Notes: generated by a model from the letters alone, not told the origin. Shown: positions 1-43,249, numbered from the stretch's first letter. The stretch is DNA of 64,000 bases from an uncultured Solirubrobacterales bacterium (GCA_963742275.1 CAVUKU010000003.1:111866-175865), one strand, 5' to 3'. A program made the numbers and translations.

Positions 1-145
1 TATACAAGGTCGTGTTGCCGCGCTGCCGCTGTGAACGGCAAAAGACGTCCGCGTTGAGATACGGCCCAGCCAGATGCCCTACGTGCAAGTCTCCGTTAGT
101 TGTCGGCGGCGTCGCAGTGACAAGGAACTTACGGGACGAGCCCAT
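1..145 (-). CDS. Methionyl-tRNA synthetase-like protein (hydrazine synthetase MetRS-like component), 5' end only
   Basis: Not in the ORF track. ATG at 145 overlaps the cupin stop (TGATG). Manual translation gives MGSSRKFLVTATPPTTNGDLHVGHLAGPYLNADVFCRSQRQRGNTTLY, a class I aaRS HIGH motif (HVGH) in a MetRS-like context; runs off the window. Confidence 0.88.
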   Translation of the reverse strand, partial: MGSSRKFLVTATPPTTNGDLHVGHLAGPYLNADVFCRSQRQRGNTTLY

Positions 146-504
146 CAGGTACTCCCACCGAACTCGCCGAGCGTCCACAGGCACAGTAGCTCCAGCGATG
201 TGCTAGGGGACGTGTTCTCGAAGTAGTGACTGTGCCCAGGTTGTACCTTAATCACGTCCCCCTCTTGAAGAGCTATTCGCTCGTCGCCGACGTACGCATC
301 GCATTTTCCACTGACGACCATGAAATGCTCGACTTCCTCGTGGCTGTGGAGTTCCGTTCGCCCACCCGGTGGGACTATCCCCAATCCCATCCCATTCTCC
401 GAGGGCCCACTGGAGTCCCACGGCAAGATTCGCCAAAACTGGCAGCCGTAGTCATCGAGCAGGCTGGCCTCCGACCGGCGTTGTATTGCGAAGCTACTGT
501 GCAC
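145..504 (-). CDS. Stand-alone cupin (metal-binding), likely the N-N bond-forming cupin of a hydrazine synthetase
   Basis: Cupin motifs PGGRTELHSHEEVE and GDVIKVQPGHSH; translationally coupled between the N-hydroxylase and the MetRS-like gene. Confidence 0.85.
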   Translation of the reverse strand: MHSSFAIQRRSEASLLDDYGCQFWRILPWDSSGPSENGMGLGIVPPGGRTELHSHEEVEHFMVVSGKCDAYVGDERIALQEGDVIKVQPGHSHYFENTSPSTSLELLCLWTLGEFGGST

Positions 505-1868
505 TATGTACCTCCCACAGCGTAGATTTCATTAGGTCTCTGGCGGTGCTCACGCTCCGTGCCCATTGCCGACTGCAGAATCTCGTAGTTCCGATGCGAG
601 AGAACAGAGAGCAGGGTGCTCGTCAGACCGTGCGATTCCTCCGTGGCCCCTTGCAGAAAGATCTTCACTCGCAAGAGGTCGTCGGTTTCGATCGCATAGT
701 CGCGTCTCACCACCAGGGTGCCCTCGGCGGTCCTGCACAAGTAAGGCTCAAGGTCACCAAGAAGCTGCTCAACATGTTTGTAGTCGTAGCCGGTTGCGAA
801 GACAACCCCGTCGTAGTCGCCTGTGCGTACAGTGCCTGTGTTGACGTCTTGCAATGAAGCAGTTACCTTGTCCTTCACTTGGTGGCACTCCAGCAGCCGC
901 GTGAAGCGAAGCAGACGCAACCGTTCGTGGTTGCAAAGACGCTGGTGATAGAGCAGCTCTGAGATTTCCCGGATAACATCCTCATCGACTGCCGCATAGT
1001 TTGTGTGATGCAGGCTTTCAAGAACTTGGTGCTTGCCGCTTGCCGGAAGCTGGTAAAACAAATCGACGTTCTCGGGATTAAAGATCTCGTTTGCTTGCAC
1101 GCTGTTGTTTGCGGGCATAAGAGCAAATGTCGAAAACGCCATCGTGACGTCTGCACGCGGGAACTCACGGCCGAGGTACTGAAATATCTCAGCGGCACTC
1201 TGACCTGCTCCGATGACCAGGAACCGATAGGGAACATCGCGCCCCCGCTCGGCATAGCTCTTGATCTTTTCTAGGAAGGAATTACTGTGGAAAGCTGCAT
1301 CCGTCAGTTCGATGTGCTCCGCGCCTCGCGGCAGCGCTGGCTTACCCCCCAACGCGAGGACGACGTTAGATGCTACCCTCAACATCGAAGATCCCTCCCG
1401 ATCTGCGCCGAACCTGACTACCACGCGGTTCACACTGCCGTCAGGTTCAACAATCGGGCTCAAGCCTGCGACAGGCTGCTGATACATAACATAGTTGGAC
1501 AACTTCGCCGCGGCCCATGAGAAGTAATCGTGGTACTCACGCCTGGTCGGGTGGAACGTTCGGAGGTTCAGAAAGTCCTCTAGACGTCCGTGCTCGCACA
1601 GATAATTTAGAAACGAATACGGGCTAGTAGGATCTGTCGGAGTTACGAGATCCTTGAGGAACGCAACTTGCATACGAGCGCCATCGAGCAGCATGTCAGG
1701 ATGCCACGCGAAGGCGGCCCGGCGCTCCAAAAAGCCGATACGCTTGTCGACCCATCCAACCTTTGAGCGGAGCGAGGCAAACAAGGCACACAGAGAGAGG
1801 TTCGATGGCCCAAAGCCGACACCGACCAGGTCAAGCGACGGCGTATGAGCGAGGGCATCGTGTGTCAT
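504..1868 (-). CDS. Lysine/ornithine N-monooxygenase (SidA/IucD/PvdA family)
   Basis: GVGFGPSN FAD motif, WHPDMLL, FLKDLVT..PTSPYSFLNYL, GAGQSAAE NADPH motif, FATGY, HGLTSTLLS. Confidence 0.95.
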   Translation of the reverse strand: MTHDALAHTPSLDLVGVGFGPSNLSLCALFASLRSKVGWVDKRIGFLERRAAFAWHPDMLLDGARMQVAFLKDLVTPTDPTSPYSFLNYLCEHGRLEDFLNLRTFHPTRREYHDYFSWAAAKLSNYVMYQQPVAGLSPIVEPDGSVNRVVVRFGADREGSSMLRVASNVVLALGGKPALPRGAEHIELTDAAFHSNSFLEKIKSYAERGRDVPYRFLVIGAGQSAAEIFQYLGREFPRADVTMAFSTFALMPANNSVQANEIFNPENVDLFYQLPASGKHQVLESLHHTNYAAVDEDVIREISELLYHQRLCNHERLRLLRFTRLLECHQVKDKVTASLQDVNTGTVRTGDYDGVVFATGYDYKHVEQLLGDLEPYLCRTAEGTLVVRRDYAIETDDLLRVKIFLQGATEESHGLTSTLLSVLSHRNYEILQSAMGTEREHRQRPNEIYAVGGT

Positions 1869-4800
1869 GGGCGCGCCCCTGAGACTGATCCAGCGGCCGC
1901 CGACCGGCGGGCTGGTTGGACGGAGTCTGAAGCGATCAGCTCAAGTATCCTGGCGGCAATAGCCGCGGCGTGGGCTCGGCTGATAATCGTATAGTGATCG
2001 CCTGGCAGCCACATGATGGGCGTGCTCTCGCTTATGGCAGGTTGATGCGTGTGTAGCGGCGTCAGTGCAGCAAAGCCGTCGGCCGGCTGATCGGCCGCTG
2101 CAATCAACTCCGTCGGGCAGTTTGGTAGTGAAGAGACGCGGTGCGAAATCAGCAGGCTGCCCAGCTGCGCGTACTGCGAATAGAGAGGCTCGAGCGTTTC
2201 GGTCGTCTCATTCTCGCGCAGGCGGCCGGCAAGGCGCAGCCAAGCCACAGCTTCGGCCAAGGAGTGCGCCTGCGAAGACCGCAGGGCGGCGGCGTCCTGC
2301 AGATAGTCGGCGAAGAAGCCCGCGACCTTCTGGACCGCAGTGAGCTCGATCTCCCCGGGCGTAGCGCATACGAAGGCATCAATCACCGTCAACGATGCTG
2401 GCGGCATCGCAAGCCGCTCCAACACATGCGCAAGCTCGATGCCAAGTACTCCCCCCATCGACCATCCGACGAGGTGCACCGGCTCGGGGCTTTCAAGCGC
2501 CAGCAGCACCTCGGCATAGCGCGAGGCGAGATCGAGGAGGGTCTCCGGCAACACCAGCGCTGGCGGGCTTTGCAAGCCGTACACAGCCAGCTCCTGTGGC
2601 AGGGCGTCGATCAACGGCCGGTAGCAGAGCAGATGTCCCCCGATAGGATGAATAATCACCACTGTCTGGCCTTGACTCCGTCGTATCGGCACCATCACCG
2701 ACGGCTCGTCGTAAGCGGAGGAGCCTTCAATGAGTCGTGCTTGCGCTTTAATCGTGTTCTGTTCGAAGAGGCTTGAGAGGGAGATTCGTGTACCGAAGGT
2801 TTCCTCGATACGCCGCACAAGCTGTACGGCGAGCAGTGAGCTTCCGCCGACCGAGAAGAAGTCATCGTTGACCGATCTCACCTCTGTCTCGCACACATCC
2901 TCCCAGATGAGTGTCAGGGAGCGCTCGACCGGTGTTGCAGGTATGCCTCCCGTCGCAGGCGACGCCAGCTGAGCCTCCTGTGCGAGCCTGCGCATCGCCA
3001 CGGTGTCGCGCTTGCCGTTGGCCGTGAGAGGCACTGCGTCGATGACGCGGAACGTGTCTGGAATCGCGTACCTGGGGAGCTTTTCGCACAGCATGTCCCT
3101 GGCAAGACCGAAGTCCGGCGAGACATCTCTGCTTGGAATGACCAGCGCCACGAGCGTTTGCCTGGCGCCATCGCCATTTACGACACACACGGCCGTCTCG
3201 ACGCCCACGACCGCCTCAAGGTGCTTCTCGATCTCCACGAGGTCCAAGCGGTGGCCGCGGACCTTCACCTGGCTGTCGGTGCGTCCCAGGAACTCGATGC
3301 TTCCGTCGCTCCAATAGCGTCCTCGATCTCCTGTCCGGTAGATGCGATCCTCTGTGCGCGGGTGCACAAAAAAGCTTTCGCTCGTAAGTGCGGGCTGGTG
3401 GACGTATTCGGTGGCAAGCCCGTCGCCAGCGATGTACAAGTCGCCCGCCACCCACGTGGGGACCTCTGCCATCTCGGCGTCGAGCACGTGGAGTTGCTGG
3501 TTGGCGAGCGGCCGGCCGTAGGGGATGCTCTTCCAGGAGGCCTCGACGCGATCGACCACGTGATAGTTGGACCAGATAGATGCCTCGGTAGCGCCACCCA
3601 GCGCCACCACCTGTAGGCTCGGGTTGGCAGCGTGCAGCCGTGCGGGCAGATCGAGCGGTATCCAGTCGCCACTGAGCATCACCAGACGCAAGCCGCCAAG
3701 CACCGCCGTGGCTCGCGTGCCGACGTAGTCCAGGAGCATCTCCATCAACGCCGGCACCGAGTTCCACACCGTGACATGTGCTGAGTGCAGACATGCCGCC
3801 CACGACTCGGGTTCGGGATGTCGCCGATAGGGCGGGATCACCACAGCCCCTCCACAATGAAGCGCCCCGAGAAGATCGAACGCGGAGAGATCGAAGTTCA
3901 ACTCTGACAGCGAGAGGATGCGATCTTTGCTCGAGAAGCTAAACCGCTCACAGACATCAACGACGGTGTTGAGTACCCCGCGCCGTGAGATTGCGACGCC
4001 CTTTGGTACGCCGGTGGAGCCTGAGGTATAGATTACATATGCAAGCGAGTCGAGGTCAGCCGCTCGGCGTGTGGCTATCTGTAGCGTCTCGACTCCCCGG
4101 TCACTAGCGTCAATTGAGATCGCTGTCACAGAAGAGTTGAGGTCGGAGAGGATCTGTTGCCCGCGCTTATCTGCCAAGACGCATTCCAGAGTGCCCTCTG
4201 CGATGAAATGCTGCAGTCTCTTTGGCGGCCAGTCGATGTTGAGCGGCACATACGCGCTCCCGTACTGCATGACAGCAAGGGCCCCGACGTACTGCTCGGC
4301 GCTCTTCTCTGCAAGCACGCCAACGACGCGCGGCGGATCCTCTCGCCAGCGGGCGAGCTCATGATGCAGCCCCTCCATGCGCGTTTGAACCTCGTGGTAA
4401 GACAGGGCGCGCTCTGACGTCACCATCGCGGCGTCGCCGGGCGCCGTCTTCGCGTGCCCGAAGAAGCCCTCCGGCACATCCGTCTGTGGCAGTGTCTTCG
4501 CTGTGCGGTTGGCACGCCTGCGCGCAGCCGTTAGCTGCTCCGGCAAATCCGGGCTCGTTTCGGATTCCCAGCAGGAGCGATCATTGGCAAGCCGCTCGAG
4601 CAGGTAGGCGTGATAGGCAACTAGCTCCTCAATCATGCCCTGCGGAAAGGCATCCGCCACGTAGTCGAAGTTGCTCACCAGGTCGCCGTGGTCTTCGAAG
4701 ACCTGGTGATCGAGTAACACCTGCGGAGTCTGCATCGCTTTGAACGCGCACCGCCAGCCAGGTGCCTCAACCTGATTGGGGAGCGGCTTCGAAGAGCTAC

Positions 4801-6130
4801 TTGTGTCCAGTCCGGACGCGAAGACGTATGGGTTGTTGTCACGGGTCTCGGGGTTCGCCTGGCGCCCACGGCGCAGCACCTCCACTGCCGAGACGAAGCA
4901 GTGCTGGAGGTCATTTGCCATCTGCAATTGGAGCTCTCGCGCACGCTGAAGGAAGGTTTTGGACTTTCTGTCAGGCGCAAGCAACATCGTCGTGCCGAAG
5001 TTCCCGACACATCGCTCCAAAGCGTTGCTGCCAAGGGTCAGAGCCCGCGTCGATACGAGCACAGTCACCGAAAAATCCTTCGTGCCCGACCAGCGTCCGA
5101 GGACATCCATGTAAGCGCTGCACAGGACCGCGTTGGCGGAGAGTTCCACGTTGCGGGAGCGAGCCTGCAGCAGCTTCCATACCTGGGCCGGAAGCCGGTG
5201 CTGCGCACGCCGCATGACCGCTTTCCGCGGGCCATTGCCCGCGACATCCGCGGGGAGTGCAGGAGCCGGGGGAAGCGAGGGCAGGCGCCGTTCCCAGTAT
5301 GCGACGGAGTTGCGATAGCTCTGGCTCTGGCGGTAGCGGACAAGCGCCTCCAGGTAGCGCCTATACAGGCCATTGTGCGCTGCGCCGTCCCAGAGTTGCG
5401 TGCCGCTGTCGGCGGCATAGGCCTGTGCGATGTCTGCCCACACCAGCCCGATTGAGCGGGCGTCGAGCACAAAGAGCCGCACAACTATCAGGACGAAGTT
5501 TGTGTCGCGTGTGCGATAGGCCGTGCAGGCAAGCTGTGGCCCAGCATCGAGCGGTGCCAGCAAATCGCCTGCGCCCTCGCGCATCTGCGCGAACCGGGCG
5601 CGGCCCTCGTCGCCGGCCACGTCCGTCCAGTCAACAACCGTCGGGCTCCAGGAGCCAAGATCCTGCACTTCCTGCTCCTCGGCGCCGATGACCGCCACGC
5701 GCAGCATCTCGTGCCTGCTCATGACCGCGCGCAGAGCCTCAGCGAGTCGCTCAACGTCAAGGTCTGCGACTTCATAGCCTTGCGCGATATATGCCCGTGT
5801 GTGCAGGTCCAGGAAGTCCAACTCCCCGACTTGATAGGCGCCCTGTAGGTCTGTGAGCTTGAAGCTGGCGCTCCCGGCCAACGCCTCTAGCTGCAACCCG
5901 GCTGTTCCGGGGTTGCGCCGGATGTATTCAAGAGCCTCGCCCTCGCGCGCAGACAACGCTGCAACGAGCCTCTGGGTCTCGGCGTCATCTGCCGGCGTGT
6001 CGACGCGCAGGCCGCCACGTCTGGCGCGCACATAGACCCCCCGAGAGGCCAGGCTCATCAGCAGATCCTCCATAGGGCTGCCCGCGCCGGCCTGCGCCCG
6101 TGAGGATCTATCGGCCATCGTCTGACTCAT
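1865..6130 (-). CDS. NRPS termination module: TubC_N-like docking domain, heterocyclization (Cy), A (Cys-predicted), PCP, thioesterase
   Basis: Cy motifs FKLTDLQGAY and QTPQVLLDHQ; A motifs YTSGSTGVPKG, SGDWIP, GGATEASIWS, YRTGD; specificity residues read by eye as about DLFNMSLIWK (Cys type); PCP FFSVGGSSL; TE GWSMGG and GDHY. Confidence 0.93.
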   Translation of the reverse strand: MSQTMADRSSRAQAGAGSPMEDLLMSLASRGVYVRARRGGLRVDTPADDAETQRLVAALSAREGEALEYIRRNPGTAGLQLEALAGSASFKLTDLQGAYQVGELDFLDLHTRAYIAQGYEVADLDVERLAEALRAVMSRHEMLRVAVIGAEEQEVQDLGSWSPTVVDWTDVAGDEGRARFAQMREGAGDLLAPLDAGPQLACTAYRTRDTNFVLIVVRLFVLDARSIGLVWADIAQAYAADSGTQLWDGAAHNGLYRRYLEALVRYRQSQSYRNSVAYWERRLPSLPPAPALPADVAGNGPRKAVMRRAQHRLPAQVWKLLQARSRNVELSANAVLCSAYMDVLGRWSGTKDFSVTVLVSTRALTLGSNALERCVGNFGTTMLLAPDRKSKTFLQRARELQLQMANDLQHCFVSAVEVLRRGRQANPETRDNNPYVFASGLDTSSSSKPLPNQVEAPGWRCAFKAMQTPQVLLDHQVFEDHGDLVSNFDYVADAFPQGMIEELVAYHAYLLERLANDRSCWESETSPDLPEQLTAARRRANRTAKTLPQTDVPEGFFGHAKTAPGDAAMVTSERALSYHEVQTRMEGLHHELARWREDPPRVVGVLAEKSAEQYVGALAVMQYGSAYVPLNIDWPPKRLQHFIAEGTLECVLADKRGQQILSDLNSSVTAISIDASDRGVETLQIATRRAADLDSLAYVIYTSGSTGVPKGVAISRRGVLNTVVDVCERFSFSSKDRILSLSELNFDLSAFDLLGALHCGGAVVIPPYRRHPEPESWAACLHSAHVTVWNSVPALMEMLLDYVGTRATAVLGGLRLVMLSGDWIPLDLPARLHAANPSLQVVALGGATEASIWSNYHVVDRVEASWKSIPYGRPLANQQLHVLDAEMAEVPTWVAGDLYIAGDGLATEYVHQPALTSESFFVHPRTEDRIYRTGDRGRYWSDGSIEFLGRTDSQVKVRGHRLDLVEIEKHLEAVVGVETAVCVVNGDGARQTLVALVIPSRDVSPDFGLARDMLCEKLPRYAIPDTFRVIDAVPLTANGKRDTVAMRRLAQEAQLASPATGGIPATPVERSLTLIWEDVCETEVRSVNDDFFSVGGSSLLAVQLVRRIEETFGTRISLSSLFEQNTIKAQARLIEGSSAYDEPSVMVPIRRSQGQTVVIIHPIGGHLLCYRPLIDALPQELAVYGLQSPPALVLPETLLDLASRYAEVLLALESPEPVHLVGWSMGGVLGIELAHVLERLAMPPASLTVIDAFVCATPGEIELTAVQKVAGFFADYLQDAAALRSSQAHSLAEAVAWLRLAGRLRENETTETLEPLYSQYAQLGSLLISHRVSSLPNCPTELIAAADQPADGFAALTPLHTHQPAISESTPIMWLPGDHYTIISRAHAAAIAARILELIASDSVQPARRSAAAGSVSGARP

Positions 6131-6146
6131 TGGGTTTGTGCCCTCG

Positions 6147-9100
6147 TTAGTTCACGGCAAGCGAGGTTGCACGAGCCAGCTTGCGGATCATGCTGTCCGG
6201 TCCGAAGAGGTCTGCCAGCGCGAACTCGAACCCATCCTGCTGGCTCAGCGCTAGGATTCTCATTGCCGCCAGCGAATTCCCGCCCAGCGCCAGGAATCTC
6301 GTCTCGACGTCTACGACAGGCAGATCGAGAACATTGCTCCATATGCCGGAAAGCACTTGCTCCTCCGGCGTCTCAGCAAGGCTGACTTCGCCCTCTCCTC
6401 GATCGGCGACCGTGCCTCTCATGGGAAGGGTATCCCCACCGCCGTCCTCCGCGACGGGCGTCTGCACCCGAGCGTGGCCGACGATGTCGACGAGTCCCTC
6501 ATTGCGCCCTGACGCAATACGTTGAAGGATCGCGCGGAACGTCTCAAGAACCTCCTCGACACGCGCTGCGCTGAAAAACGCACGGTCATACTTCACCTGG
6601 AAGTAGAGCGTCTCGTCAGGCATAGCCTCTATAGCAAAGGGGTAGTTGGTCCAGCCGATGTAGCGCTCTTGACGGACCTCGATGCCACCTCTCCCCGACC
6701 AGCCAGCACCTCGTGGAAAGTTCTCGAAGATGAGCAGCGTCTCGAACAGCGGCTGGTCGCTCGGAAGCTCTGATCGCTGCTGGATCAGAGGCAGCGAATA
6801 TTGCTCGTGAGCGCGAGCGGCGACCTGCGCGTCCTGGATTTCTTGCAACCAGTCGTCGACCCGCAGCTGCGGTGCGATGCCGATGCGGATGGGCAGACTG
6901 TTGATGAAGATCCCGACTAGGTTCTCCACGCCCTCCAGCGCAACGGGGCGGTGTGTGATGGTGATTCCAAAGCAGATGTCCGCCTGACCGCTGAGGCGAC
7001 CGAGGACCAGCGCCCACGCTCCCTGGACGAGCGAGTTCAGCGTGAGACGCTGGCGGCGCGCGTACTCCATCAGCGCCCCGCTGAGTTCCTCGTCAAGATC
7101 GAGGCGCGTCTCGGAGTGAAGCTCTAGGTCGCTCGCCGACAAGGTCAGCCGCTCGACGCCGCTAACCATCGTCGGGCGGCGGAAGCCACGCAGCCTCTCT
7201 TGCCAGTAGGCTCGCGCGGCGTCCTGGTCCTCTTTCTTCAGCAGCGCGACGTAGTCGCCGAACGATCGCGTGGGCGCCAGCTGCGGCAACCTGTTCTCTA
7301 GCTGGGCACTGTACAGCTCGAGAGAGTCACGCAGCAACACGAACAGCGACCAGGCGTCGAGGATCAGGTGGTGATAGCTCATGACAAGCTTGAACGTCCG
7401 ATCCTCCATGCGCATGACGGCAAGCCGGAACAGGGGCGCCTGCGTGTAGTCGAACCCGCGCCGGCGGTCCTCACGCAGATAGTCTTCGAGCAGCGTCTGC
7501 TGAGCGCCCGATTCCTGACGCCAATCGCACACTGTCCACTCGAGCTTTGCCTCACGCTGGACGACCTGATGCGGCTCCTGCATTCCCTGCAGCGCGATCC
7601 AGACGCGAAGTATCTCGTGGCGATCGACCACGGCCTGCCACGCATGGTTGTATGTCTCGAGATCGAGATCTCCCTTGAGCGTGTGGATGAACTGCTCGCA
7701 GTACACGCCTGAGCCTGGGTCCAAGAGTGAGTGAAACAGCATTCCCTTTTGCATGTCGGTCAGGGGGTAGAGCCGCTCGATCGCATCCGGCTTCTCTGCC
7801 AGACGCGCCGCTTCCTCGTAAGCGTCCTGAAACTCCTCCGCAGGCTCTGAGGCGCCCGCACTCGGTCGCTCCGAGCTCGCCCGGCACGCAAGGGCCTTTG
7901 TGACTGCCTGTGGAGATTCTAGGACCGATTCGATGTGCAGCGCCATCTCCGCGATCGTCGGCGTCTGAAACACCTGTGTCGCCGGCAGGCCGATGCCGAT
8001 CCTGTTGAGCTTTGCGCTCAGCAGGAAGCCTTGAATCGAGTCGCCGCCAAGTGCGAAGAAGTTGTCGTGGACGCCGATACGCGAACGCTCGAGCACGTCG
8101 CCCCATATCTCGCAAAGATACGTCGGCAACTCGCCCTCAGGGGCCGTGTAGTCCTCAGCTATCTCCAGATGGTTGCCCGTCACCTGTTCGAGCGCGACAC
8201 GGTCCACCTTGCCATTGTGCGTCTGAGGGATCTCGTCGACCAGGATAAACGCCGCAGGGATCATGTAATTCGAGATCTTCGCCGCCAGGTGCGATCGGAT
8301 ATGAGTAGTGGACGGCATAGCGTCCCCATCAGCGATCAGATAGGCGATGAGCCGCTGTTGCCCCGAGGCTCTGCGGCGGCCGACGACGACCGCTTGGAGG
8401 ACTCCTGGTACCTCGCGCAGGGCGCTCTCCACTTCACCAAGCTCCACGCGATGCCCAGTGATCTTCACCTGGGTGTCGATGCGGCCCATGAGCTGACAGC
8501 ACCCGTCATCGTCGATCCGCGCAAGGTCGCCGGTGTGGAACCAGTCTCCGTGCTCAGTTTTCACGAACCTCGTCGCCGTCAGATCGAGGTCCTTGTAGTA
8601 GCCATCGGCCATGCCTACGCCACTCATGCAAAGCTCGCCCGGATTCCCATCTGGGACAGGCCTCATCTCAACATCCAGGATGTGGGGCGTAAGATCAGCG
8701 GCGTGGCCGACCGGCACGAATCCTGGGTACTCGACGCCAGGAAGGCACTCCCAATAGGTGCAGTAAAGGGCCTCGGTAAGGCCATAGATGTTGTACAGCC
8801 GCGCTGCCCCCCCAGTAGCGAAGTACCGCCTTGGCAGGTCTCCGGGCATTACATCCGAACTGCAAAACAGGTACTTCAGCGAATCGGTCGCACGAAAGGC
8901 CGGTGTTTCGATCAGCCCTTCGAGCAGGCCAGGCACGACCAGGATAGTGCATATGCCATGCTGATGGACGAGCTCGGCAATCCGCTGAGGATCCTTGTGC
9001 TGCCCGGACGGCATGATGACGATCATGCCACCGGATAGCACCGGCCAAAACACCTCGCGAATCAGGTTTGTGACACTCAGCGTCGTTCGCAGGAGGTGAC

Positions 9101-9638
9101 GCTCACCGCGCTCTAGAGGGAAGGTCCGCTGTAGCCACTGCTGGCCCGAGAGGAGTGCCCTGTGCGAGAGAACCACGCCCTTGGGAACACCTGTGGAGCC
9201 GGATGTATAGAAGATGAATGCCGGGTCCTCAGGCTTGACTTTGTCCGACCCTGGCTTGCCTGCGGGCAGCTCGGCCACAGCCACCATGCGGGCGCACGAG
9301 GGGCTGTCGGCAACATGCCCATCGGTAAGCACGAACTCGGCTTGGGCGTGCTTCAGAATGACCTCCCGGCGCTCTGCCGGATCGTCGGCGTCAATCGGCA
9401 CGACCACGCCCCCAGCCCGCAAGATCCCGAATATCGCCGCCAGTAGCTCGTGCGAACGCGACATGTATAGGCCGACTCTTGCACCACTTTCCACACCGAG
9501 TGCGCACAGTCCCCCGGCAATCCGCAGCGCGTCCTGCTCCAAACCACCGAAGCTCGCCGTCTCATCCCCAAATACGGCCGCCACCGCGTCCGGGCTCTGG
9601 GTAGCTTGATTGGTAAGAAGGTCGTGCAATCGAGACAT
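6147..9638 (-). CDS. NRPS A-PCP-C-PCP
   Basis: A motifs YTSGSTGVPKG, YGLTE, FHTGD, NGKVDR; PCP FFALGGDSI; C domain HHLILDAWS; second PCP FLALGGNSL at the C-terminus. Confidence 0.93.
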   Translation of the reverse strand: MSRLHDLLTNQATQSPDAVAAVFGDETASFGGLEQDALRIAGGLCALGVESGARVGLYMSRSHELLAAIFGILRAGGVVVPIDADDPAERREVILKHAQAEFVLTDGHVADSPSCARMVAVAELPAGKPGSDKVKPEDPAFIFYTSGSTGVPKGVVLSHRALLSGQQWLQRTFPLERGERHLLRTTLSVTNLIREVFWPVLSGGMIVIMPSGQHKDPQRIAELVHQHGICTILVVPGLLEGLIETPAFRATDSLKYLFCSSDVMPGDLPRRYFATGGAARLYNIYGLTEALYCTYWECLPGVEYPGFVPVGHAADLTPHILDVEMRPVPDGNPGELCMSGVGMADGYYKDLDLTATRFVKTEHGDWFHTGDLARIDDDGCCQLMGRIDTQVKITGHRVELGEVESALREVPGVLQAVVVGRRRASGQQRLIAYLIADGDAMPSTTHIRSHLAAKISNYMIPAAFILVDEIPQTHNGKVDRVALEQVTGNHLEIAEDYTAPEGELPTYLCEIWGDVLERSRIGVHDNFFALGGDSIQGFLLSAKLNRIGIGLPATQVFQTPTIAEMALHIESVLESPQAVTKALACRASSERPSAGASEPAEEFQDAYEEAARLAEKPDAIERLYPLTDMQKGMLFHSLLDPGSGVYCEQFIHTLKGDLDLETYNHAWQAVVDRHEILRVWIALQGMQEPHQVVQREAKLEWTVCDWRQESGAQQTLLEDYLREDRRRGFDYTQAPLFRLAVMRMEDRTFKLVMSYHHLILDAWSLFVLLRDSLELYSAQLENRLPQLAPTRSFGDYVALLKKEDQDAARAYWQERLRGFRRPTMVSGVERLTLSASDLELHSETRLDLDEELSGALMEYARRQRLTLNSLVQGAWALVLGRLSGQADICFGITITHRPVALEGVENLVGIFINSLPIRIGIAPQLRVDDWLQEIQDAQVAARAHEQYSLPLIQQRSELPSDQPLFETLLIFENFPRGAGWSGRGGIEVRQERYIGWTNYPFAIEAMPDETLYFQVKYDRAFFSAARVEEVLETFRAILQRIASGRNEGLVDIVGHARVQTPVAEDGGGDTLPMRGTVADRGEGEVSLAETPEEQVLSGIWSNVLDLPVVDVETRFLALGGNSLAAMRILALSQQDGFEFALADLFGPDSMIRKLARATSLAVN

Positions 9639-9779
9639 AGGCTCCCATGGTCCTCTCGTCTAGTCATACCGCCATCGACGGTCGCAGGCGGCTTGCTGGC
9701 GTCAGATTGTCGCCCGTGAAGCTCTATGTCAAAAATCGCGCCTTGGGCGATGACGGGGATCGGCCTTGATCGGCGCTGC

Positions 9780-10661
9780 TCAATCCGCAGCGCCGACGGC
9801 CTCTGAGAGGCTGGACATGGCACTGAAGTCCTCTGGGCCGCGGTTCGCGGAGCCGACCTCCTCCGGGAAGCAGGGACGGACGGCGGTACTCATTTCCATG
9901 AGATCCATTGTCGTGTACTGCGGCACGTAGACAGGGGCTGCACGGCCAGTGAGCAATCCAAGAATGAGCGTGGCCACGCGGGCGCCGGTGAGGAACACCG
10001 CAGGCGCGACCACAGGTGCCGGAATCTGCCCCTCAATGACTTCCCGCACGAGGACGGCAGGGGCAGATGACGGCAGGTCGGCATCTGCCGGTATCCATGG
10101 AAAGCGGCCTGCAGCGAGCGTCTTTTCGATGTACTGCGCAATGCCAACGCCTTCCGGGTGGTAGGCGTAGACGTCCGACCGAAAGCCGACGCTTGCACCA
10201 CCGACTATGGTCAACTGGGCCTCGCGTGCCGCTTGGTCAAGCGCGCGAGCGGCGTCCAGTGCAAAGAGGTCCACACCGTTGACCACACACTGCAAGTCCT
10301 CCACAAGCCGCTTGGCATTCTCAGGAGTCACTCCCTCGGGGACCTCTTCGATCTGAATCAAGGGGTTTATGCGCCGTAGCTCCTGAGCTAGGCCCTGGAC
10401 CTTGGGAAGTCCAAGGGTATCCGTGTACGCGCCGAACTGGCGATTGAGATTGGAGACATCGAAGTCATCGACGTCGGCTAGGCGGAAGCGCTGGAAGCCC
10501 AGACGCGCTAGACACGTTGCGGTCGCACCACCCTCGGCGCCGATGCCCGCCAGAAGAATTCGGGCGCTGGCAATGCGATCTTGCTCCTCGCGGCTGATGA
10601 TTCCAAGATTGCGCGAGAAGATATTGTCGTAGCTCACCGCCGGACTGTGTCTTGTGTCCAT
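9780..10661 (-). CDS. ThiF/MoeB (E1-like) adenylyltransferase
   Basis: FSRNLG..EEQ..I, GIGAEGG nucleotide-binding loop, DVDDFDVSNLNRQ; AAGGAG SD before ATG 10661. Confidence 0.88.
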   Translation of the reverse strand: MDTRHSPAVSYDNIFSRNLGIISREEQDRIASARILLAGIGAEGGATATCLARLGFQRFRLADVDDFDVSNLNRQFGAYTDTLGLPKVQGLAQELRRINPLIQIEEVPEGVTPENAKRLVEDLQCVVNGVDLFALDAARALDQAAREAQLTIVGGASVGFRSDVYAYHPEGVGIAQYIEKTLAAGRFPWIPADADLPSSAPAVLVREVIEGQIPAPVVAPAVFLTGARVATLILGLLTGRAAPVYVPQYTTMDLMEMSTAVRPCFPEEVGSANRGPEDFSAMSSLSEAVGAAD

Positions 10662-10761
10662 GTGATGATCTCCTTCGGATCGCCGGTTGATGTTCGAGAT
10701 CGCGGCGTGCATCCCCAATGCCGCTGCGTAATCGCCAGCCTCACCAGTGGTTGATCCGATG

Positions 10762-11613
10762 TCAAGAATCGGCGTCAGCGAGTTGGAGCTCGCGGAGATG
10801 GTTCGTGACCTTGCGCCGTGCTTTGAGCGCTCTCACGGCAAAGCCGGGGGTGCCGAGCATTACGCCGATCAGCGCGTCGCCGGCGTTAGTATCGACCAGT
10901 GCTGTGAACCGCGAGTCCAGCTGCGGCTCGCCCGACAGCGGAAGCTTCTCGCCATAAAGCGAGCCCATGTACGAGAAGACGCCCCGCGACACGAAGAACT
11001 CACGCTCGAGTTCGATGCCTGGGGGCCCAAGATGCTCCGCCGTGACTTGCGCCGCCGCGAAGGCGCGATCGCTCCTGTGAGCGGTTCCCGATGAGGGATA
11101 GGGGAAGGCATAACGCCCTCCAAGGTTCGCCGCGGCACGCAGAACGACTGGGCTCTGCGTTCTGAAGGTCATTGTCATGAGACGCCGATGCTCACGAGAA
11201 ATAGCGCTCCACGGCGCGACCGTGAGCAACGTAGCGAGGCCATGCCGGTGATGGGCGTGCCTGAAGCCTACGGTGTCAATGTAAAGCAGGGGCTCGCGAA
11301 CGCCGGGCAGGATCTTTATCCCGGCCCATCCGACGACCTCCCGGCCAGCTGTCACAAGCCACCACTCCGACAGCTCCTGAAAGTAGTCGCGGCGCTCCCA
11401 GTATTCACTGAGATCAGCGCCTACCATCTCACTAGAGACTGCCTTGCAGATCGGCATCAGCATGGCCTTGTCATCACGACTGAGCGAGCTCCTCGGCCTT
11501 ACGAATCGGCGCAGCATGTACGGGCCGTGCGTTATGGCTTGACTAGCCCCTGCTGGGGTCCTTGCCAGCAGCGGGGGATCACGATATTTATCGATAAGCG
11601 GGTCGTTGGTCAT
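10762..11613 (-). CDS. Putative GNAT-fold acyltransferase
   Basis: VVGWAG..LYIDTVGFRHAHHRHGLATLL resembles GNAT motif A; same strand as and within the cluster; start uncertain. Confidence 0.55.
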   Translation of the reverse strand: MTNDPLIDKYRDPPLLARTPAGASQAITHGPYMLRRFVRPRSSLSRDDKAMLMPICKAVSSEMVGADLSEYWERRDYFQELSEWWLVTAGREVVGWAGIKILPGVREPLLYIDTVGFRHAHHRHGLATLLTVAPWSAISREHRRLMTMTFRTQSPVVLRAAANLGGRYAFPYPSSGTAHRSDRAFAAAQVTAEHLGPPGIELEREFFVSRGVFSYMGSLYGEKLPLSGEPQLDSRFTALVDTNAGDALIGVMLGTPGFAVRALKARRKVTNHLRELQLADADS

Positions 11614-11662
11614 GCTTGCGACTATCGGCTCGTCATTCGTGGTGGCCCAAACCGAGTCCTTG

Positions 11663-12367
11663 CTAGGGTCGACGATAATTGAGCACGTAGTCTGGCAGGG
11701 AGCCCGCCGTCGAGACATCCATCCGCGGATCGCCAATCGGAGCGCTAGTCCGAACGTCAAGGGGAATGACTCCCGCCCAGACAGGTAGCGCATAGTCCTC
11801 CTCATCGTCCTCTGGCGGCCCAGTCCTGACCTTTGCCGAAGCTGCTGTCACAGGTAGCTTCAGAACCGCTGTCCCCTTGAGCTCCTGACTGGTCGGAGGA
11901 CGCACATCATCCCAGCGTCCCTTGATGATGTGCTCCGAGATAGCACGAAGGCTCTCCCACTTCTCATCAGCGTCCAGGACAAGTGAGGCCTGGCCATACA
12001 GAACCACCGACCGATAGTTCATCGAGTGGTTGACCGCAGAGCGAGCCAGAACCAACCCGTCAAGCAGCGTGACCGTCAGGCATACGTCTATGCGTGCGCT
12101 TGGTGCGCCCTTCGTCACCTTGGCCGCTCGGCTCGCAGCGGACCCGTGGATGAAGACGTGATCACCTATCCGCCCGTAGGATGTGGCGATGACCACCGGC
12201 AATCCATCGGTCGCGAAGCCTAGATGGCAGATAAAGCCCTCGTCCAGTATGGAAAAGATGACCTCGCGCTCATAGTTGGCACGCTGGGGCATGCGACGGA
12301 TCTTTGTTCGCACTGTGGGCTCGAATACGTCGCTGGTCATCGGCTCCTTGCTTTCGTTCGTCGCCAT
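11663..12367 (-). CDS. Pyridoxamine 5'-phosphate oxidase-like / NimA-like flavin-binding split-barrel protein
   Basis: RANYEREVIFSILDEGFICHLGF, IHGSAASR, DGLVLARSAVNHSMNYRSVV, SAKVRTGPP, WAGVIP. Confidence 0.9.
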   Translation of the reverse strand: MATNESKEPMTSDVFEPTVRTKIRRMPQRANYEREVIFSILDEGFICHLGFATDGLPVVIATSYGRIGDHVFIHGSAASRAAKVTKGAPSARIDVCLTVTLLDGLVLARSAVNHSMNYRSVVLYGQASLVLDADEKWESLRAISEHIIKGRWDDVRPPTSQELKGTAVLKLPVTAASAKVRTGPPEDDEEDYALPVWAGVIPLDVRTSAPIGDPRMDVSTAGSLPDYVLNYRRP

Positions 12368-12483
12368 TGCTTGGTCGCCAGCAAGCATAGCTAAACGGCT
12401 TATGATGCCTCCAAATACGCTAGGGCTACGGAGAGGGCGCCGGGGCGATCGCACACCCGATCCCACGTTGGGGATTGATATTT

Positions 12484-14300
12484 ATGAACCCATACACCAC
12501 AACAGCGCTATTCACCGGCTCGAGCACTGTGGATATCTGGTTCGTGGATCTTTACCCCCCAGCACCCTTGCGAGACCCAATGCTCGCTTTCCTCTCCGCA
12601 GACGAGAGGAACCACGCCACGATGTTCCGATCACATCATGCGCGCAGCACATTCCAGATCGCACGGGCGACCTTGCGCCTTCACCTGGCGCGCTATACGG
12701 GAGCCGCCCCACACGAACTCATCATTGAGGTCAGCAGGCAAGGCAAGCCGTTTCTCGCCGGACAAGAGGCCCATGCCCCGCTTCGTTTTAACGTTTCTCA
12801 TTCTCACGGCTACGCGCTCATGTGTTTTTCAAGGAGCCACGAAGTAGGGATCGATATCGAGAAGATCAGGCTGCTTCCCGATGCTCGCCTGGTTGCTGAG
12901 CAGCACTTTTCACCTGCCGAGCTCAAGAGCGTCTTTGCAAAGAGGATAAAGGCGCATCCACGCGCTTTCTTGCGTGCTGGACTCGAAAGGAGGCACTCGT
13001 AAAGGGGCTAGGTGACGTGCCCAGGGACGTTCAGAACGCGGTGTAGGTAGGTCCGGGCCTACCGAGAGGCTGTGGGTGTCAAAGCTCACGACCTCAAGGG
13101 AGGCCCGGAATGCCGCACCATAGAGCTCGTATGACCCCGCGTGGGCGGGAGATGGTCGTTCGTCGTGTCGTGGATGACGGGATGTCCTTCGCGCAGGCCG
13201 CGGCGTGGGGGAACGTGTCGAAGTCCACGGTGTGGGAGTGGGTACGCCGCTGGCGGGCGGCGACCCCGGGTGAGCGGGAGTCGCTGGTGTGCCTGGCAGG
13301 AGCGCTCCAGTCGCCCTCACCGGTCTCCCTCCCGGTGCCCTGCTGAGGAGGAGCAGCGGATCTGTGAGCTGCGCCAGCGAACGGGCTGGAGTCCCAGGAC
13401 GATCGCGATGCTGATTGGGCGCCCTCACTCGACCGTGCACCAGGTGCTGCGACGCGGGGGCTGCTCACGCCGGGAGCCCTCCGAGCGCGCAGCGGTCGTC
13501 CGCTACGAGTGGCCCTGCCCCGGGAACCTGCTGCATATGGACGTCAAGAAGCTCGGGAAGTTCACCGAGCCCGGGCACGCGCTGACGGGTGATCGCACCC
13601 GACGCTCCCCGGCGAGTCGGCTGGGAGTACGTGCACTCGATCGTCGATGACTGCTCACGCCTGGCGTACTCAGAGATCCACGACGACGAGAAGGCCCCGA
13701 CCGTGACTGCGTTCACCTGCCGCGCCCTGGACTGGTTCCTTGGAGCACGGGATCGTCGCTGAGCGGCTGATGACCGACAACGCGTTCGCCTACATCCACA
13801 ACAAGACGCTGCGCGAGCTGCTCTACCGCCGCGCGATCCACCATCTCCGCACCCGGCCCTACACGCCCCGCACCAACGGGAAGGTCGAGCGCTACCAGCA
13901 GACCCTGCAACGCGAGTGGGCCTACGCCCTGCAATACGCCTCAAGCGACGCCCGTCGAGCTTCGCTGCCACACTGAGTCCGCCACTACAACGAGCAGCGC
14001 ACCCACAGCGCCCTCGGCAACCGCCCACCCATCCACCGCGTTCGGGACGTCACCGGGCACAACAGCTAGGTCAAGGCTTGCATATGCCTCTGCGTACATT
14101 TGACGTGACACCCGAGCGCTCCGCCAGCGCCGTCGCCTGGCGTTGCTCCAACTTTAACTCGTTGGTTCACCGCGCAGCTCACTCTGCCTGTGGAGAGACA
14201 CTGTGGTGCTGTCGCGCTATCCGCCATCCAAAGCCTACGTGCTCACCAGCCGCTCTGTCCCACGACAACCGAGTGGGATCCCTTTCTGGCGCATTGCTAT
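12484..14300 (+). pseudogene. Sfp-type 4'-phosphopantetheinyl transferase interrupted by IS481 and frameshifted
   Basis: GKP, FNVSHS and VGIDIE motifs; WTRKEALVKGLG lies in a shifted frame at ~12978; the reading continues after the IS as GQGLHMPLRTFDV; 3' end approximate. Confidence 0.88.
13013..14064 (+). mobile_element. IS481-family insertion sequence (1052 bp) with frameshifted transposase
   Basis: Imperfect terminal IRs TGACGTGCCCAGGGACGT and ACGTCACCGGGCACAACA; 6-bp DR GCTAGG at 13007-13012 and 14065-14070; transposase fragments HMDVKKLG, LMTDN, RPYTPRTNGKVER across several frames. Confidence 0.93.
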
Positions 14301-14308
14301 CTTCAGCA

Positions 14309-14881
14309 TCACTCCTGGGTGTCCGTGTTTGGCGGGGAATCAGAGGAGCTTTTCAGCTCGAGGTAGTGCCCGCATTGCGGACAGGTGATGCCTGTCTTAC
14401 TCGCCTTCGTAGATGGCACGTCCTTCCCCCCGTCTTTCCGCCGCCGAAGCTCAACGCGCAGGCAGCGCACCGAAAGGCGCTCCTGCTCTGCAAGATCAAG
14501 CCAATGCTCCTGTTCCTCCGCGGTAAGTGCCGCCAGCTCCGCGTGATGGCTCCACGACAGCATCTCCCGACGTCGGGAGATCTCGAAGCGGGCTGCTACA
14601 TATGCCATGTTCATCAATGTTTGCCTGTCATAAAGCGTGAGTTTTTCGGCGCGTGCGTACTTTTCACCGAAACGAGCGTTGCCGTAGCGAATCCAGTCCC
14701 CTACCCACCAGCCTGCAGCTCTGCTTTGACTGGCTAGTTGTGCACCGAAGCGAGCCCACGTCTCCAGATCGAGCTCTCCGTTTGGCTCCCAAGCTACACG
14801 CGTAATCCGCGGCGTCGAAACTTGCGTCCGCAGCGGTCTCAGCGCTATCTGTTGTGCCTGAGCAGTGCTCATGCTTGTCAA
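14309..14881 (-). CDS. LmbU/NovE-family cluster-situated transcriptional regulator
   Basis: WWVGDWIRYG...Y..A...T..D.QTL.N.AYVA.RF..SRRR..LSWSHHAELA.L...EQ..WL..A motif series; C-terminal CPQCG. Confidence 0.88.
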   Translation of the reverse strand: MTSMSTAQAQQIALRPLRTQVSTPRITRVAWEPNGELDLETWARFGAQLASQSRAAGWWVGDWIRYGNARFGEKYARAEKLTLYDRQTLMNMAYVAARFEISRRREMLSWSHHAELAALTAEEQEHWLDLAEQERLSVRCLRVELRRRKDGGKDVPSTKASKTGITCPQCGHYLELKSSSDSPPNTDTQE

Positions 14882-19893: not shown

Positions 19894-20252
19894 CGAGCGT
19901 TTTTTGAGGGCACCTGAGAGCACCTGACGTTCCCGAAAACCGCTTAGTTCGGCGGAGAGCAGCGTATTCCAACGCACTGCAAAGCCGTCTACACCGGTTC
20001 GATTCCGGTCGTCGCCTTGAAAAAGCCCTGCAAATCGGCACTTTTTGCCTTGGTCGCTGCGCACACGACCATCTACGCTCCCAGGACTCTCCCAAAAGGC
20101 CGTCTACACGGCTCGATTTTTGGGCCCATTTGCAGGGGATTTGTTCGGCACCCAACTCGTCGATTCCAGTGCCGCGCCAAAAAGCCGTTGACGGTGGCCA
20201 TTAGGCAAAGGATCATCGGCCGGAGGTAGTCGGCGAGCGCTTGCTTGTCGTC
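19894..20252 (+). repeat. att junction copy 1 (~360-bp imperfect direct repeat) containing a tRNA-Cys 3' fragment at 19977-20017
   Basis: CTGCAAAGCCGTCTACACCGGTTCGATTCCGGTCGTCGCCT = anticodon loop (GCA), T-arm, acceptor 3' strand and U discriminator; flanks align with 24816-25172. Confidence 0.9.
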
Positions 20253-24815: not shown

Positions 24816-25172
24816 CGAGCGTTTTTTGAGGGCACCTGAGAGCGCCTGAGGTCCCCGAGAACCGCTCAGGTAAGCGGAGAGCACCGTTTTTCCGACACCC
24901 TGCAAAGCCGTCTACACCGGTTCGATTCCGGTCGTCGCCTTGAAAACTCCCTGCAAATCGGCACCTTTTGGCCAGTCCACTGCGCAGACGATCGTCTACT
25001 CTCCCGGAACTCTCCCAAAAAGCCGTCTACACGGCTCGATTTTTGTGCCCATTTGCAGGGGATTTGTCTGGCGCCCGACTCATCGATTCCGGTGCTGGGC
25101 CAAAAGCCGTTGACGGTTGCCGTTGGCAAAGGGATCGTCGGCCGACGTCGGCGGGCGCGCTTGCTTGTCGTC
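24816..25172 (+). repeat. att junction copy 2 containing a tRNA-Cys 3' fragment at 24900-24940
   Basis: Same 41-bp core as copy 1; flanks collinear with 19894-20252; cut on the right by IS1182. Confidence 0.9.
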
Positions 25173-39797: not shown

Positions 39798-40550
39798 TCA
39801 CCCAGGGATCGGCGCAGACTGCGGCTGCGCATCAACGGGGTCGCGTACCTCGCCGGCGGGGGGCCCGTCGGTGAGCTTGCCGTCGCGCAGCGTTGTGCAG
39901 CGGTCGGCGATCAGGGCAGCCTCCCGATCGTGAGTGACGAGCAGCACCCGCGCGCCGCGCTCATGCGCGACGGAGCGCAACAGCTGCACGATCTCCCTGC
40001 CGCGTACGCTGTCGAGGTTCCCTGTCGGCTCGTCGGCGAGGATCAGACTCGGCTCTCCCGCGAGCGCGCGGGCGATAGCGACGCGCTGGCGCTCTCCGCC
40101 GGAGAGCTTCTCGGGTGTGTGCTCGAGCCGGTCAGCGAGCCCCACCCGCTCGAGCCAGGGGATCGCGCGAGCCTGGGCCTCACGCATCCCGACCCCGCCG
40201 ATGAGCAGCTTCCGGGCCGCGTTCTCGATCACCGGGACTCGGGGCATGAGATGGAAGTGCTGAAAGACGAACCCGACCTCCCTGAGCAGGTACTCACTCG
40301 CCTGACCTTCAGACATCGAAGGTACGTCGCGCCCCTGGTAGCGAATCGTGCCCTCCTCGGGCTTCATCAGCGCAGCGATCAGCAGCAGCAGTGTCGTCTT
40401 GCCCGAGCCGCTGGGGCCAAGCAACGCGACCATCTCGCCGGGCGCGATCGTAAGGCTCACGCCATCGACGGCGCGCACCTCCTCGCCCGCGCCGTGGTAG
40501 TACTTGACCACGCTGTCGAGTTCAAGCAACGCCGCCCGCTCCTCGCGCAA
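39798..40550 (-). CDS. ABC transporter ATP-binding protein (LolD/MacB type)
   Basis: [31 protein letters not shown]. Confidence 0.95.
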
Positions 40551-41854: not shown

Positions 41855-42262
41855 AGTGGAAGTTCGCCCCCGCAGAAAAGACCCGTTTCCTTCTCGAATG
41901 GACACTTCCAAACTTTGAACCCTCAAACGATGCCTACCCAAACCGCGCCGCAGACCCCATCATGCCCGCAGTGGCGTCCAAGGACACACGACGGACAACG
42001 CAGACCGGGAGCCGTGCTTGCCCGCGGTGGCCGCGCATAGCGACCACCGGCGGCGTGAGCGACCGGCGAAGCGATGCCCGCGGGCGCGACGGGTGCTACC
42101 CGCTCTGGCACTCTCGCCGGAAAGGCCACCCAGGCTGGCGTCGCCCTGGCGCTGCGTTCTCCTGGGTCGGTCGTCGTGTCCCGAGGCGGGCCGAGCGTCC
42201 ACAAGACTGCCCTGGGGTCAGACGCTCGGCCCGCCCAGACGCTACCACCCATGCCAGGCGTC

Positions 42263-42622: not shown

Positions 42623-42802
42623 CCCCGATGCGCCAACTCGGCGCGATCCCCGACCCGTCCGGCTTGCTCTGACACCCTGTTCGACGACCTCGCGGCGATC
42701 GAGACGTTGGGCGGTACTCTGCACACCCGCGGCACCTACCTGCGCCTGGCCCGGCGGGGTAGCGCCGGATGCAGATCGATGCCTGGCCCTACGCTTGGGC
42801 AC

Positions 42803-43207: not shown

Positions 43208-43249
43208 TGAGCAGATTCGGAGAAGCACGGCGAGCCCTGGCGCCCTAGC

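Follow-up and report, generated by a model that had tools for sequence, protein, structure and literature searches.

A tRNA-Cys island of an uncultured Solirubrobacterales bacterium carries an orphan gene cluster that pairs a predicted split hydrazine synthetase with a dedicated nonribosomal peptide synthetase

Introduction

Hydrazine synthetases composed of a cupin and a protein that resembles methionyl-tRNA synthetase (MetRS-like protein) are a well-studied route to the N-N bond. In the characterised pathways covered by our literature search, the lysine carrier is cut away before the hydrazine is used, with a hydrazine-cleaving oxidase of the DAO type or a dehydrogenase freeing the hydrazino acid. 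Pairs of a standalone cupin and a standalone MetRS-like protein were described from gene context in 2010 (PMC2922099), and split pairs have been shown to work in RHS1 of Rhodococcus jostii RHA1 (PMC8664883), AsnHS of Burkholderia ubonensis (bioRxiv 2025.08.22.671884) and FuzE/FuzG of Microbispora fusca (PMC13149037). Here we describe a set of this kind, i.e. a flavin N-hydroxylase, a cupin and a MetRS-like protein encoded by separate genes (the triad), which follows two nonribosomal peptide synthetase (NRPS) genes at the left end of a 64,000-nucleotide stretch of DNA from an uncultured Solirubrobacterales bacterium (GCA_963742275.1; this whole stretch is referred to as the window).

The locus spans about 20 kb and is an orphan biosynthetic cluster, in which the hydrazine synthetase is paired with a dedicated NRPS. 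Among the characterised pathways covered, none couples a hydrazine synthetase to an NRPS of this design. Our overall reading, to which we give a probability of about 0.7, is that this is an island-borne orphan cluster whose split hydrazine synthetase works as in the known family and feeds the dedicated NRPS.

Results and Discussion

Gene order and coupling

The window corresponds to positions 111866-175865 of contig C3 in a four-contig, 3.69-Mb assembly, and the 15 kb to its left were fetched as locus L001. The core features are:

1-145, minus strand: first 48 codons of the MetRS-like gene, encoding the predicted O-aminoacyl-hydroxylamine synthetase half of the enzyme (tRNA-synt_1g, 1.3e-61)
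L001 13571-15145 (contig C3 110436-112010): whole MetRS-like gene, 524 codons, which runs left of the window
145-504, minus strand: standalone cupin of 119 amino acids, a predicted N-N-bond-forming zinc cupin (Cupin_2, 9e-16)
504-1868, minus strand: flavin N-hydroxylase, most likely an L-lysine N6-monooxygenase (Lys_Orn_oxgnase, 2e-100)
1865-6130, minus strand: NRPS2, 1421 amino acids, with an EpoB-like docking region, a variant heterocyclisation-like (Cy-like) domain, an adenylation (A) domain with a cysteine-like code, a carrier (T) domain and a thioesterase (TE) (Pfam Condensation, AMP-binding, PP-binding and Thioesterase)
6147-9638, minus strand: NRPS1, 1163 amino acids, with an A domain lacking Asp235, a T domain, a condensation (C) domain (HHLILDA) and a second T domain (Pfam AMP-binding, PP-binding twice, and Condensation)

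Thirteen genes are transcribed in the same direction. In the order of transcription they encode a PNPOx-like flavoprotein, a GNAT-like protein, a ThiF-like adenylyltransferase, NRPS1 (A-T-C-T), NRPS2 (docking region, Cy-like, A, T, TE), the N-hydroxylase, the cupin, the MetRS-like protein, a diaminopimelate decarboxylase (LysA), an M28 peptidase, an alpha/beta hydrolase, an MMPL transporter and a RimL-type GNAT. The genes of the triad are joined by overlapping stop and start codons, which can be read directly from the raw sequence: the hydroxylase stop TAG (506-504) overlaps the cupin start GTG (504-502) as TAGTG, and the cupin stop TGA (147-145) overlaps the MetRS-like start ATG (145-143) as TGATG. 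A further overlap of 4 nt joins the NRPS2 stop to the hydroxylase start. The initial annotation had described the triad as overlap-coupled and preceded by two NRPS genes on the same strand, and the open reading frames (ORFs), their Pfam assignments and the raw sequence all agree with this. It had also proposed retrieving the left flank, where the full 524-codon MetRS-like gene was found.

Identity of the triad

The MetRS-like protein carries the motifs LHVGH and KFSTS in addition to its tRNA-synt_1g match. An anticodon-binding domain is absent by Pfam, residues 380-525 being unmatched even at E 1. Its best matches in the PDB are 9L8V and 9VQ4 (2e-51, residues 6-495), whereas true MetRSs score considerably lower (3e-34 for the Pyrococcus enzyme and about 1e-24 for that of E. 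coli). The protein also falls under every NCBIfam metG cut-off (256 bits versus 553, and 163 versus 336). The entries 9L8V and 9VQ4 are PyrN-C, the part of the hydrazine synthetase for pyrazomycin that acts as an O-aminoacyl-hydroxylamine synthetase, which has HLGH and KFSTG where MetRS has HIGH and KMSKS (preprint reporting these entries). A separate housekeeping MetG, with Anticodon_3 and KMSKS, is encoded on contig C1 and is 23% identical to the MetRS-like protein. In a maximum likelihood tree of 84 rows, this MetG forms a long branch outside all 83 MetRS-like rows. Relative to Spb40, Tri28 and PyrN, which are not among the rows of the tree, the protein is placed by PDB scores and published pocket residues, with the MetG of the same genome as a further reference. 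The protein at this locus is evidently not the housekeeping MetG, the identity that would have undone the initial annotation.

The amino acid pocket of the MetRS-like protein reads TPDQWMNF (T12, P13, D53, Q56, W256, M259, N299 and F303). Across 15 clade members from several phyla, seven of these residues are invariant and F303 is nearly so. The glycine-type enzyme Spb40 has T128, P129, D169, Q172, W371, M374, N412 and H416 at the pocket positions (Matsuda's residues, as quoted in PMC12376268), and AzsN, also of the glycine type, has the code TPDQWMNH (PMC12376268). The spacing of the pocket residues matches that of Spb40 to within two residues, and the glutamate-binding residues R390 and R425 of PyrN align with Leu and Phe. 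From this pocket we predict, with moderate confidence, that the substrate is glycine, or possibly alanine.

The cupin residues H53, H55, E59 and H93 (HxHxxxE...H) are invariant in 28 MetRS-linked cupins, fused forms included. They correspond to the metal ligands and glutamate established for PyrN and RHS1, the essential glutamate of PyrN being E56 (with H50 a ligand) and its RHS1 equivalent E69. When the PDB is searched with a profile of the MetRS-linked cupins, full-length matches are found to Plu4264 (4MV2, 9e-29) and 4RD7 (5e-25). These two proteins have no function in their PDB titles, and their scores are far above those of generic cupins and above that of RHS1; they are probably N-N-forming cupins themselves.

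The closest PDB match of the hydroxylase is the L-lysine N6-monooxygenase MbtG (9NNS, 5e-93), ahead of the ornithine enzymes. With PyrN-C as the best match of the MetRS-like protein, invariant cupin ligands and an adjacent N-hydroxylase, the hydrazine synthetase signature noted in the initial annotation holds, and hydroxylase, cupin and MetRS-like protein form, by sequence criteria, a triad of the hydrazine synthetase family with a glycine-type pocket. The LysA encoded downstream of the MetRS-like gene exceeds the TIGR01048 cut-off and matches its E. coli counterpart at 8e-167. The genome has another LysA as well; the simplest role of this extra copy would be to supply lysine to a lysine-consuming pathway. 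A tailoring decarboxylase that acts on the hydrazine or makes a diamine was considered for this protein and rejected, on account of its equivalog-level score and its close match to the E. coli enzyme.

A family of NRPS-linked triads

A scan of species-representative genomes yielded 79 loci, whose neighbourhoods were scored with the proteins of this cluster. Wherever the MetRS-like protein exceeds about 50% identity, the locus also encodes an NRPS1 orthologue (A-T-C-T, 50-70% identity, with the same A4 signature). The sampled NRPS1-linked MetRS-like proteins, 25 in number, form a single clade with an SH-aLRT support of 99, which includes Streptomyces, Kitasatospora, Catenulispora, Kutzneria, Amycolatopsis, Polyangiaceae, Pseudomonas syringae pv. 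tagetis and a Solirubrobacterales metagenome-assembled genome (MAG). That all 25 fall together bears out the earlier proposal of a link between triad and NRPS, and the triad is evolutionarily tied to the NRPS genes.

Two subtypes can be recognised. Subtype I consists of NRPS1, the triad and NRPS2, usually with LysA, and is carried by many Streptomyces, Kitasatospora phosalacinea, Catenulispora, a Polyangiaceae MAG, P. syringae pv. tagetis, the Solirubrobacterales MAG and the genome studied here. In Subtype II, NRPS1 and the triad are joined only by a transporter and a small thioesterase; its carriers are Kutzneria, Amycolatopsis and several Streptomyces. The separation of cupin and MetRS-like genes, which the initial annotation had taken to be unusual, is the prevailing state, with 67 of 83 sampled relatives split and 16 fused, and it has precedents in RHS1, AsnHS and FuzE/FuzG. 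Its statement that the architecture is not that of a characterised cluster has stood: no characterised product or cluster of this architecture was found in the openly searchable literature, most subscription-journal papers lying outside the search.

NRPS1 and NRPS2

The A4 region of the NRPS1 A domain reads LRTTLSVTNLIRE where FDxSxxE is expected, with Thr at the position of Asp235. Alignment to the A domain of NRPS2, which is canonical, gives it a ten-residue code of roughly T-N-R-L-F-S-I-Y-C-K. Both the pocket and the A4 signature are kept in the Streptomyces, P. syringae and Kutzneria orthologues. A domains that have lost Asp235 are those whose substrates lack a free alpha-amino group, a description that hydrazino acids, N-acylated or not, would fit.

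The N-terminus of NRPS2 aligns with the docking region of EpoB and is followed by the Cy-type domain, which scores 9e-51 against the Cy domain of EpoB (docking region included), 6e-38 against Cy1 of HMWP2 and 3e-31 against the Cy domain of BmdB. The A domain has the code DLFNMSLIWK, with Leu at the fifth position in orthologues, and is near to the Stachelhaus code for cysteine, DLYNLSLIWK. The best matches in the PDB at module length are BmdB, PchE and FmoA3, of which the first two are cysteine-activating and the third is an alpha-methylserine module.

Cy domains carry a DxxxxDxxS motif, together with an Asp-Thr dyad that is accompanied by a helper Gln; cyclodehydration is severely affected when these residues are mutated (PMC9547227). 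In NRPS2 the motif reads RLFVLDARS, with Arg in place of the first Asp, and the Thr of the dyad is replaced by Ala (PYVFASGL, versus FTS in EpoB, HMWP2 and BmdB). The Asp of the dyad and the helper Gln are retained (LLDHQ in TPQVLLDHQ). The Arg and Ala changes are both kept in orthologues at 42-50% identity, including those of Streptomyces and P. syringae, and the domain is therefore under selection but non-canonical. In an exhaustive search of 1.84 billion representative proteins, from whose 150 best matches about 340 Cy-type domains were aligned, 200 domains are in the canonical state. The combination of Arg and Ala occurs ten times, the query counted, and in NRPS2 orthologues only, and Ala at the dyad Thr position is found about 13 further times. 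The multi-Cy NRPSs P0174, P0178 and P0187 are among the proteins in which the first Cy domain also has Ala at the dyad Thr position (state DDSACDQ), and Cy domains of this type may be a class with divided labour.

The initial annotation had proposed that the final module heterocyclises cysteine and yields a thiazoline. The domain has Cy-type homology and the A code is cysteine-like, but because the first Asp of DxxxxD and the dyad Thr are missing, and orthologues share these two changes, the thiazoline is doubtful. We would give its presence in the product roughly one chance in three.

Oxidase and accessory genes

The remaining ORFs to the right of NRPS1 are:

9780-10718, minus strand: ThiF/E1-like adenylyltransferase (ThiF, 5.6e-39; under all NCBIfam cut-offs; copy at locus L020 63% identical)
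10762-11805, minus strand: GNAT-fold acyltransferase-like protein (weak Acetyltransf_1 match, 7e-5; N-acetyltransferase atlas neighbours at 0.94; L020 copy 49% identical)
11663-12466, minus strand: PNPOx-like split-barrel flavoprotein (Pyridox_ox_2, 4.8e-40; L020 copy 56% identical)

As listed, the ORF of the GNAT-like protein overlaps the upstream gene by 143 nt, and its true start is therefore probably further downstream. The ThiF, GNAT-like, PNPOx-like, M28 peptidase, hydrolase and MMPL genes are common only to the Solirubrobacterales MAG and the closest relative, L010. The PNPOx-like protein is the sole flavoenzyme of the cluster besides the N-hydroxylase. The flavin oxidase that the initial annotation had suggested looking for, as the enzyme releasing the hydrazino acid, did not appear: no DAO-family oxidase was found in the island, the nearest on contig C3 being about 100 kb off, and no DAO-type hydrazine-cleaving oxidase is listed in the orthologous clusters of Streptomyces, P. 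syringae and Kutzneria. The operon ends with the RimL-type GNAT at L001 7202-7900, which is weakly similar to the N-acetyltransferase domain of an IleRS fusion and to two resistance acetyltransferases, BlmB and ArsN1. This gene may confer self-resistance, in which case the product could be an antimetabolite.

The island and the integrity of the cluster

Two features at the right of the cluster bear on its origin and its present state:

12475-14400, plus strand: divergent Sfp-type phosphopantetheinyl transferase (PPTase) gene, interrupted by an insertion sequence (IS) at 13008-14069 (AASDHPPT_N and ACPS matches)
19977-20017, plus strand: exact 41-nt repeat of the tRNA-Cys 3' half, which likely marks where the island ends on the right (second copy at 24900-24940)

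An intact tRNA-Cys gene at L001 2877-2948 adjoins a tyrosine integrase gene at L001 3117-4661, and the last 41 nt of the tRNA are repeated exactly at the two window positions just given, 32 and 37 kb away. The tRNA gene, the integrase and the exact repeats place the cluster within a tRNA-Cys island of about 32 kb, beside which a second element of 4.9 kb is inserted in tandem. The GC content of the island is 0.57-0.63, against 0.69 for the genome, and the MetRS-like protein was not found in the 24 same-genus or 16 same-order genomes searched, the EF-Tu of the genome sharing a 90% cluster with that of a Solirubrobacteraceae MAG. The plain reading is that the cluster was acquired horizontally. 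Positions 40000-60000 of the window gave trivial matches only when compared with PLSDB by megablast.

The IS is 1062 bp long, has imperfect inverted repeats of 36 nt and a duplicated CTAG(G), and lies inside the PPTase gene; as assembled, the reading frame of its transposase is broken over several frames. Contigs from four unrelated soil metagenome runs match positions 13007-14069 only (90-99% identity) and diverge at both ends, which fixes the boundaries of the element and indicates that it is mobile. The 17 DNA runs that share window sequence do so with shares of at most 0.09 and coverage almost of the IS alone, and are uninformative on expression or habitat.

These observations lead to the best surviving alternative to our overall reading, namely that the island carries the cluster as a silent or decaying passenger, with no product in this genome. 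An IS, with ends confirmed from unrelated metagenome contigs, cuts the Sfp-type PPTase, no RNA runs were found among the sequencing runs with window sequence, and the syntenic cluster of L010 (MetRS-like protein 70% identical) is in pieces, with NRPS1 in four, NRPS2 in three, LysA in two and MMPL in two. Since its own PPTase is cut, activity of the cluster in this genome would depend on another PPTase. However, two other genes with an ACPS domain are present on contig C1, and all 13 biosynthetic and export ORFs are full length in comparison with their orthologues. Moreover, at least one of the apparent frameshifts probably arose in the assembly: a short-read contig differs from the window only by an extra A after position 12938, with which the N-terminal part of the PPTase runs in one frame through WTRKEALVKG, and the frameshift near 12938 is therefore probably an assembly indel. 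By the same token, the pieces seen in L010 may also be errors, and the fragmentation there could reflect either decay or errors of long-read assembly. Two other genes of the genome studied here show similar symptoms, the C-terminal tail of the LeuRS on C3 (about 403000-406200; L005/L008) looking out of frame and the housekeeping LysA on C1 (221396-222678) matching in two different frames; these could be either real frameshifts or more assembly indels. Taken with the intact state of the biosynthetic genes, we regard a silent or decaying cluster as possible but doubtful.

Proposed pathway and its alternatives

In the pathway that we propose, the extra LysA copy would supply L-lysine, which the flavin N-hydroxylase would convert to N6-hydroxylysine. 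The MetRS-like protein would adenylate a small amino acid, most likely glycine, and place it as an ester on the N-hydroxyl group, and the standalone zinc cupin would rearrange this ester to an N-N bond, giving a hydrazine of the N6-(carboxymethylamino)lysine type. This building block would then be handed to the dedicated NRPS, probably intact, as the family has no conserved cleaving oxidase. In NRPS1, the A domain that lacks Asp235 would load the hydrazine, and the C domain would couple it to a unit on the second carrier domain. The Cy-like module of NRPS2 would add cysteine, probably without efficient cyclodehydration, after which the TE would release the product and the MMPL transporter would export it. 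A more specific version, which we put forward only tentatively, is that the whole family takes up the intact lysine-derived hydrazine without oxidative release, by way of an A domain with a replaced Asp235, and that its Cy-like domain forms no thiazoline, acting in condensation only or in a ring closure that involves the hydrazine.

Several points weigh against the proposed pathway. The chemistry of the triad is predicted from sequence, and the literature search described above turned up no product of the family. RHS1 (5UQP), which is the one standalone cupin proven biochemically, is weakly related to the cupin described here: it gives no match when the PDB is searched with the single cupin sequence at E <= 0.01, and with the profile it scores 7e-14, under generic oxalate decarboxylases. 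With this rank, the RHS1 score is unusable as a membership test for the cupin. The glycine assignment is based on seven of eight pocket residues, and the odd one, F303, is at a position termed critical for side-chain recognition in the PyrN structure paper. In NRPS1 the second carrier domain lacks a dedicated A domain to load it. In NRPS2 the Cy-like domain departs from the canonical motifs, which makes the proposed fate of the cysteine uncertain. The PNPOx-like flavoprotein could be a substitute hydrazine-cleaving oxidase in this cluster, for which reason the use of intact hydrazine is not secure. Finally, the assembly appears to contain indel errors, probably at homopolymers, and the PPTase of the cluster is disrupted by the IS.

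The involvement of the PNPOx-like protein is developed furthest in a pathway through hydrazinoacetic acid (HAA) or a hydrazonoacetyl unit, of the triacsin, azaserine and dob type. Here the Lys-Gly hydrazine would be cleaved to HAA by an unrecognised oxidase, in this case the PNPOx-like flavoprotein; the GNAT would N-acylate HAA, the A domain without Asp235 would load it on the first carrier domain, and the alpha/beta hydrolase or the M28 peptidase would later remove the acyl group. The glycine-type pocket code is in keeping with this, an A domain without Asp235 would suit an N-acylated acid, and both this cluster and L020 have a GNAT-like gene, a flavoprotein, an alpha/beta hydrolase and an M28 peptidase, a gene set that parallels the logic of GNAT, ligase, carrier protein, oxidase and deacylase in dob, triacsin and azaserine. 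Yet the orthologues in Streptomyces, P. syringae and Kutzneria keep the A pocket without the GNAT, PNPOx and hydrolase genes, and neither the island nor the listed orthologous clusters provide an oxidase of the DAO family. We therefore consider an HAA-type pathway unlikely at this locus.

A siderophore NRPS like that of mycobactin or pyochelin, in which N6-hydroxylysine would serve a hydroxamate and the cupin and MetRS-like proteins a side role, would account for the similarity of the hydroxylase to MbtG, for the Cy-like-A(Cys)-T module and for the GNAT and MMPL genes, but it is very improbable given that the MetRS-like, cupin and hydroxylase genes are strictly linked and the demonstrated function of such a set is N-N bond formation, that neither A domain has a pocket for lysine or hydroxylysine (one lacking Asp235), that no receptor or uptake genes are seen in the island, and that the metallophore rule of antiSMASH uses the MetRS-like protein as a negative marker.

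Significance of the family

The 25 sampled loci span Actinomycetota, Myxococcota and Pseudomonadota, and include culturable Streptomyces, Kitasatospora phosalacinea and P. syringae pv. tagetis. Features of interest in the family are an A domain without Asp235, a carrier domain without its own A domain, a naturally dyad-deficient Cy domain, an extra LysA within the cluster and the lack of a cleaving oxidase. If the more specific, tentative version of the pathway holds, the family would make a new structural class of hydrazine or hydrazide peptides, from Streptomyces, a Pseudomonas plant pathogen and soil Thermoleophilia. The family is of more value than the present copy, which has an uncultured host and a broken PPTase. 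It is a sound target for genome mining, best approached through its culturable Streptomyces or Pseudomonas hosts.

Comparison with known systems

The lysine N6-hydroxylase, cupin and MetRS-like chemistry proposed here is that of Spb38/Spb40 in s56-p1, Tri26/Tri28 in triacsin and AzsN in azaserine. The pocket given for Spb40 and AzsN (TPDQWMNH, in the residues quoted for Spb40) agrees with that of the MetRS-like protein (TPDQWMNF) at seven of eight positions with the same spacing. The enzymes of s56-p1, triacsin and azaserine are cupin-MetRS fusions, whereas the genes are separate here. In s56-p1 and triacsin a flavin oxidase (Spb39 and Tri27, respectively) releases hydrazinoacetic acid, while the locus described here encodes none and has an A-T-C-T NRPS as its partner.

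The best solved homologue of the MetRS-like protein is PyrN/PyrN-C (9L8V, 9VQ4 and 9VR2), which shares with it the HxGH and KFST motifs, a CP insert with a zinc knuckle and a C-terminal helical bundle. PyrN differs in being fused to its cupin and in using glutamate, with Arg390 and Arg425 where the present protein has Leu and Phe. Among the cupins, Plu4264 (4MV2) and 4RD7 share an N-terminal YG..RR..PW region with the MetRS-linked cupins, and that of RHS1 is only a distant relative. The modules of EpoB, HMWP2, BmdB and PchE (Cy-A(Cys)-T) resemble that of NRPS2 in fold and domain order, in a near-cysteine A code and in the retained dyad Asp and helper Gln. They differ in the Cy domain, where in NRPS2 Arg stands in place of the first Asp of DxxxxD and Ala in place of the dyad Thr.

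In gene organisation the closest systems are RHS1, AsnHS and FuzD/E/F/G, where, as here, separate cupin and MetRS-like genes adjoin an N-hydroxylase gene. These split systems differ from the present cluster in that they include a cleaving enzyme, either a dehydrogenase or an oxidase (PyrL-like, FuzF), and have ATP-grasp ligases or lack an NRPS altogether. Both the chemistry of the enzymes and their split form are already known from the systems above, and what is distinctive is the conserved family in which the triad is combined with an A-T-C-T NRPS.

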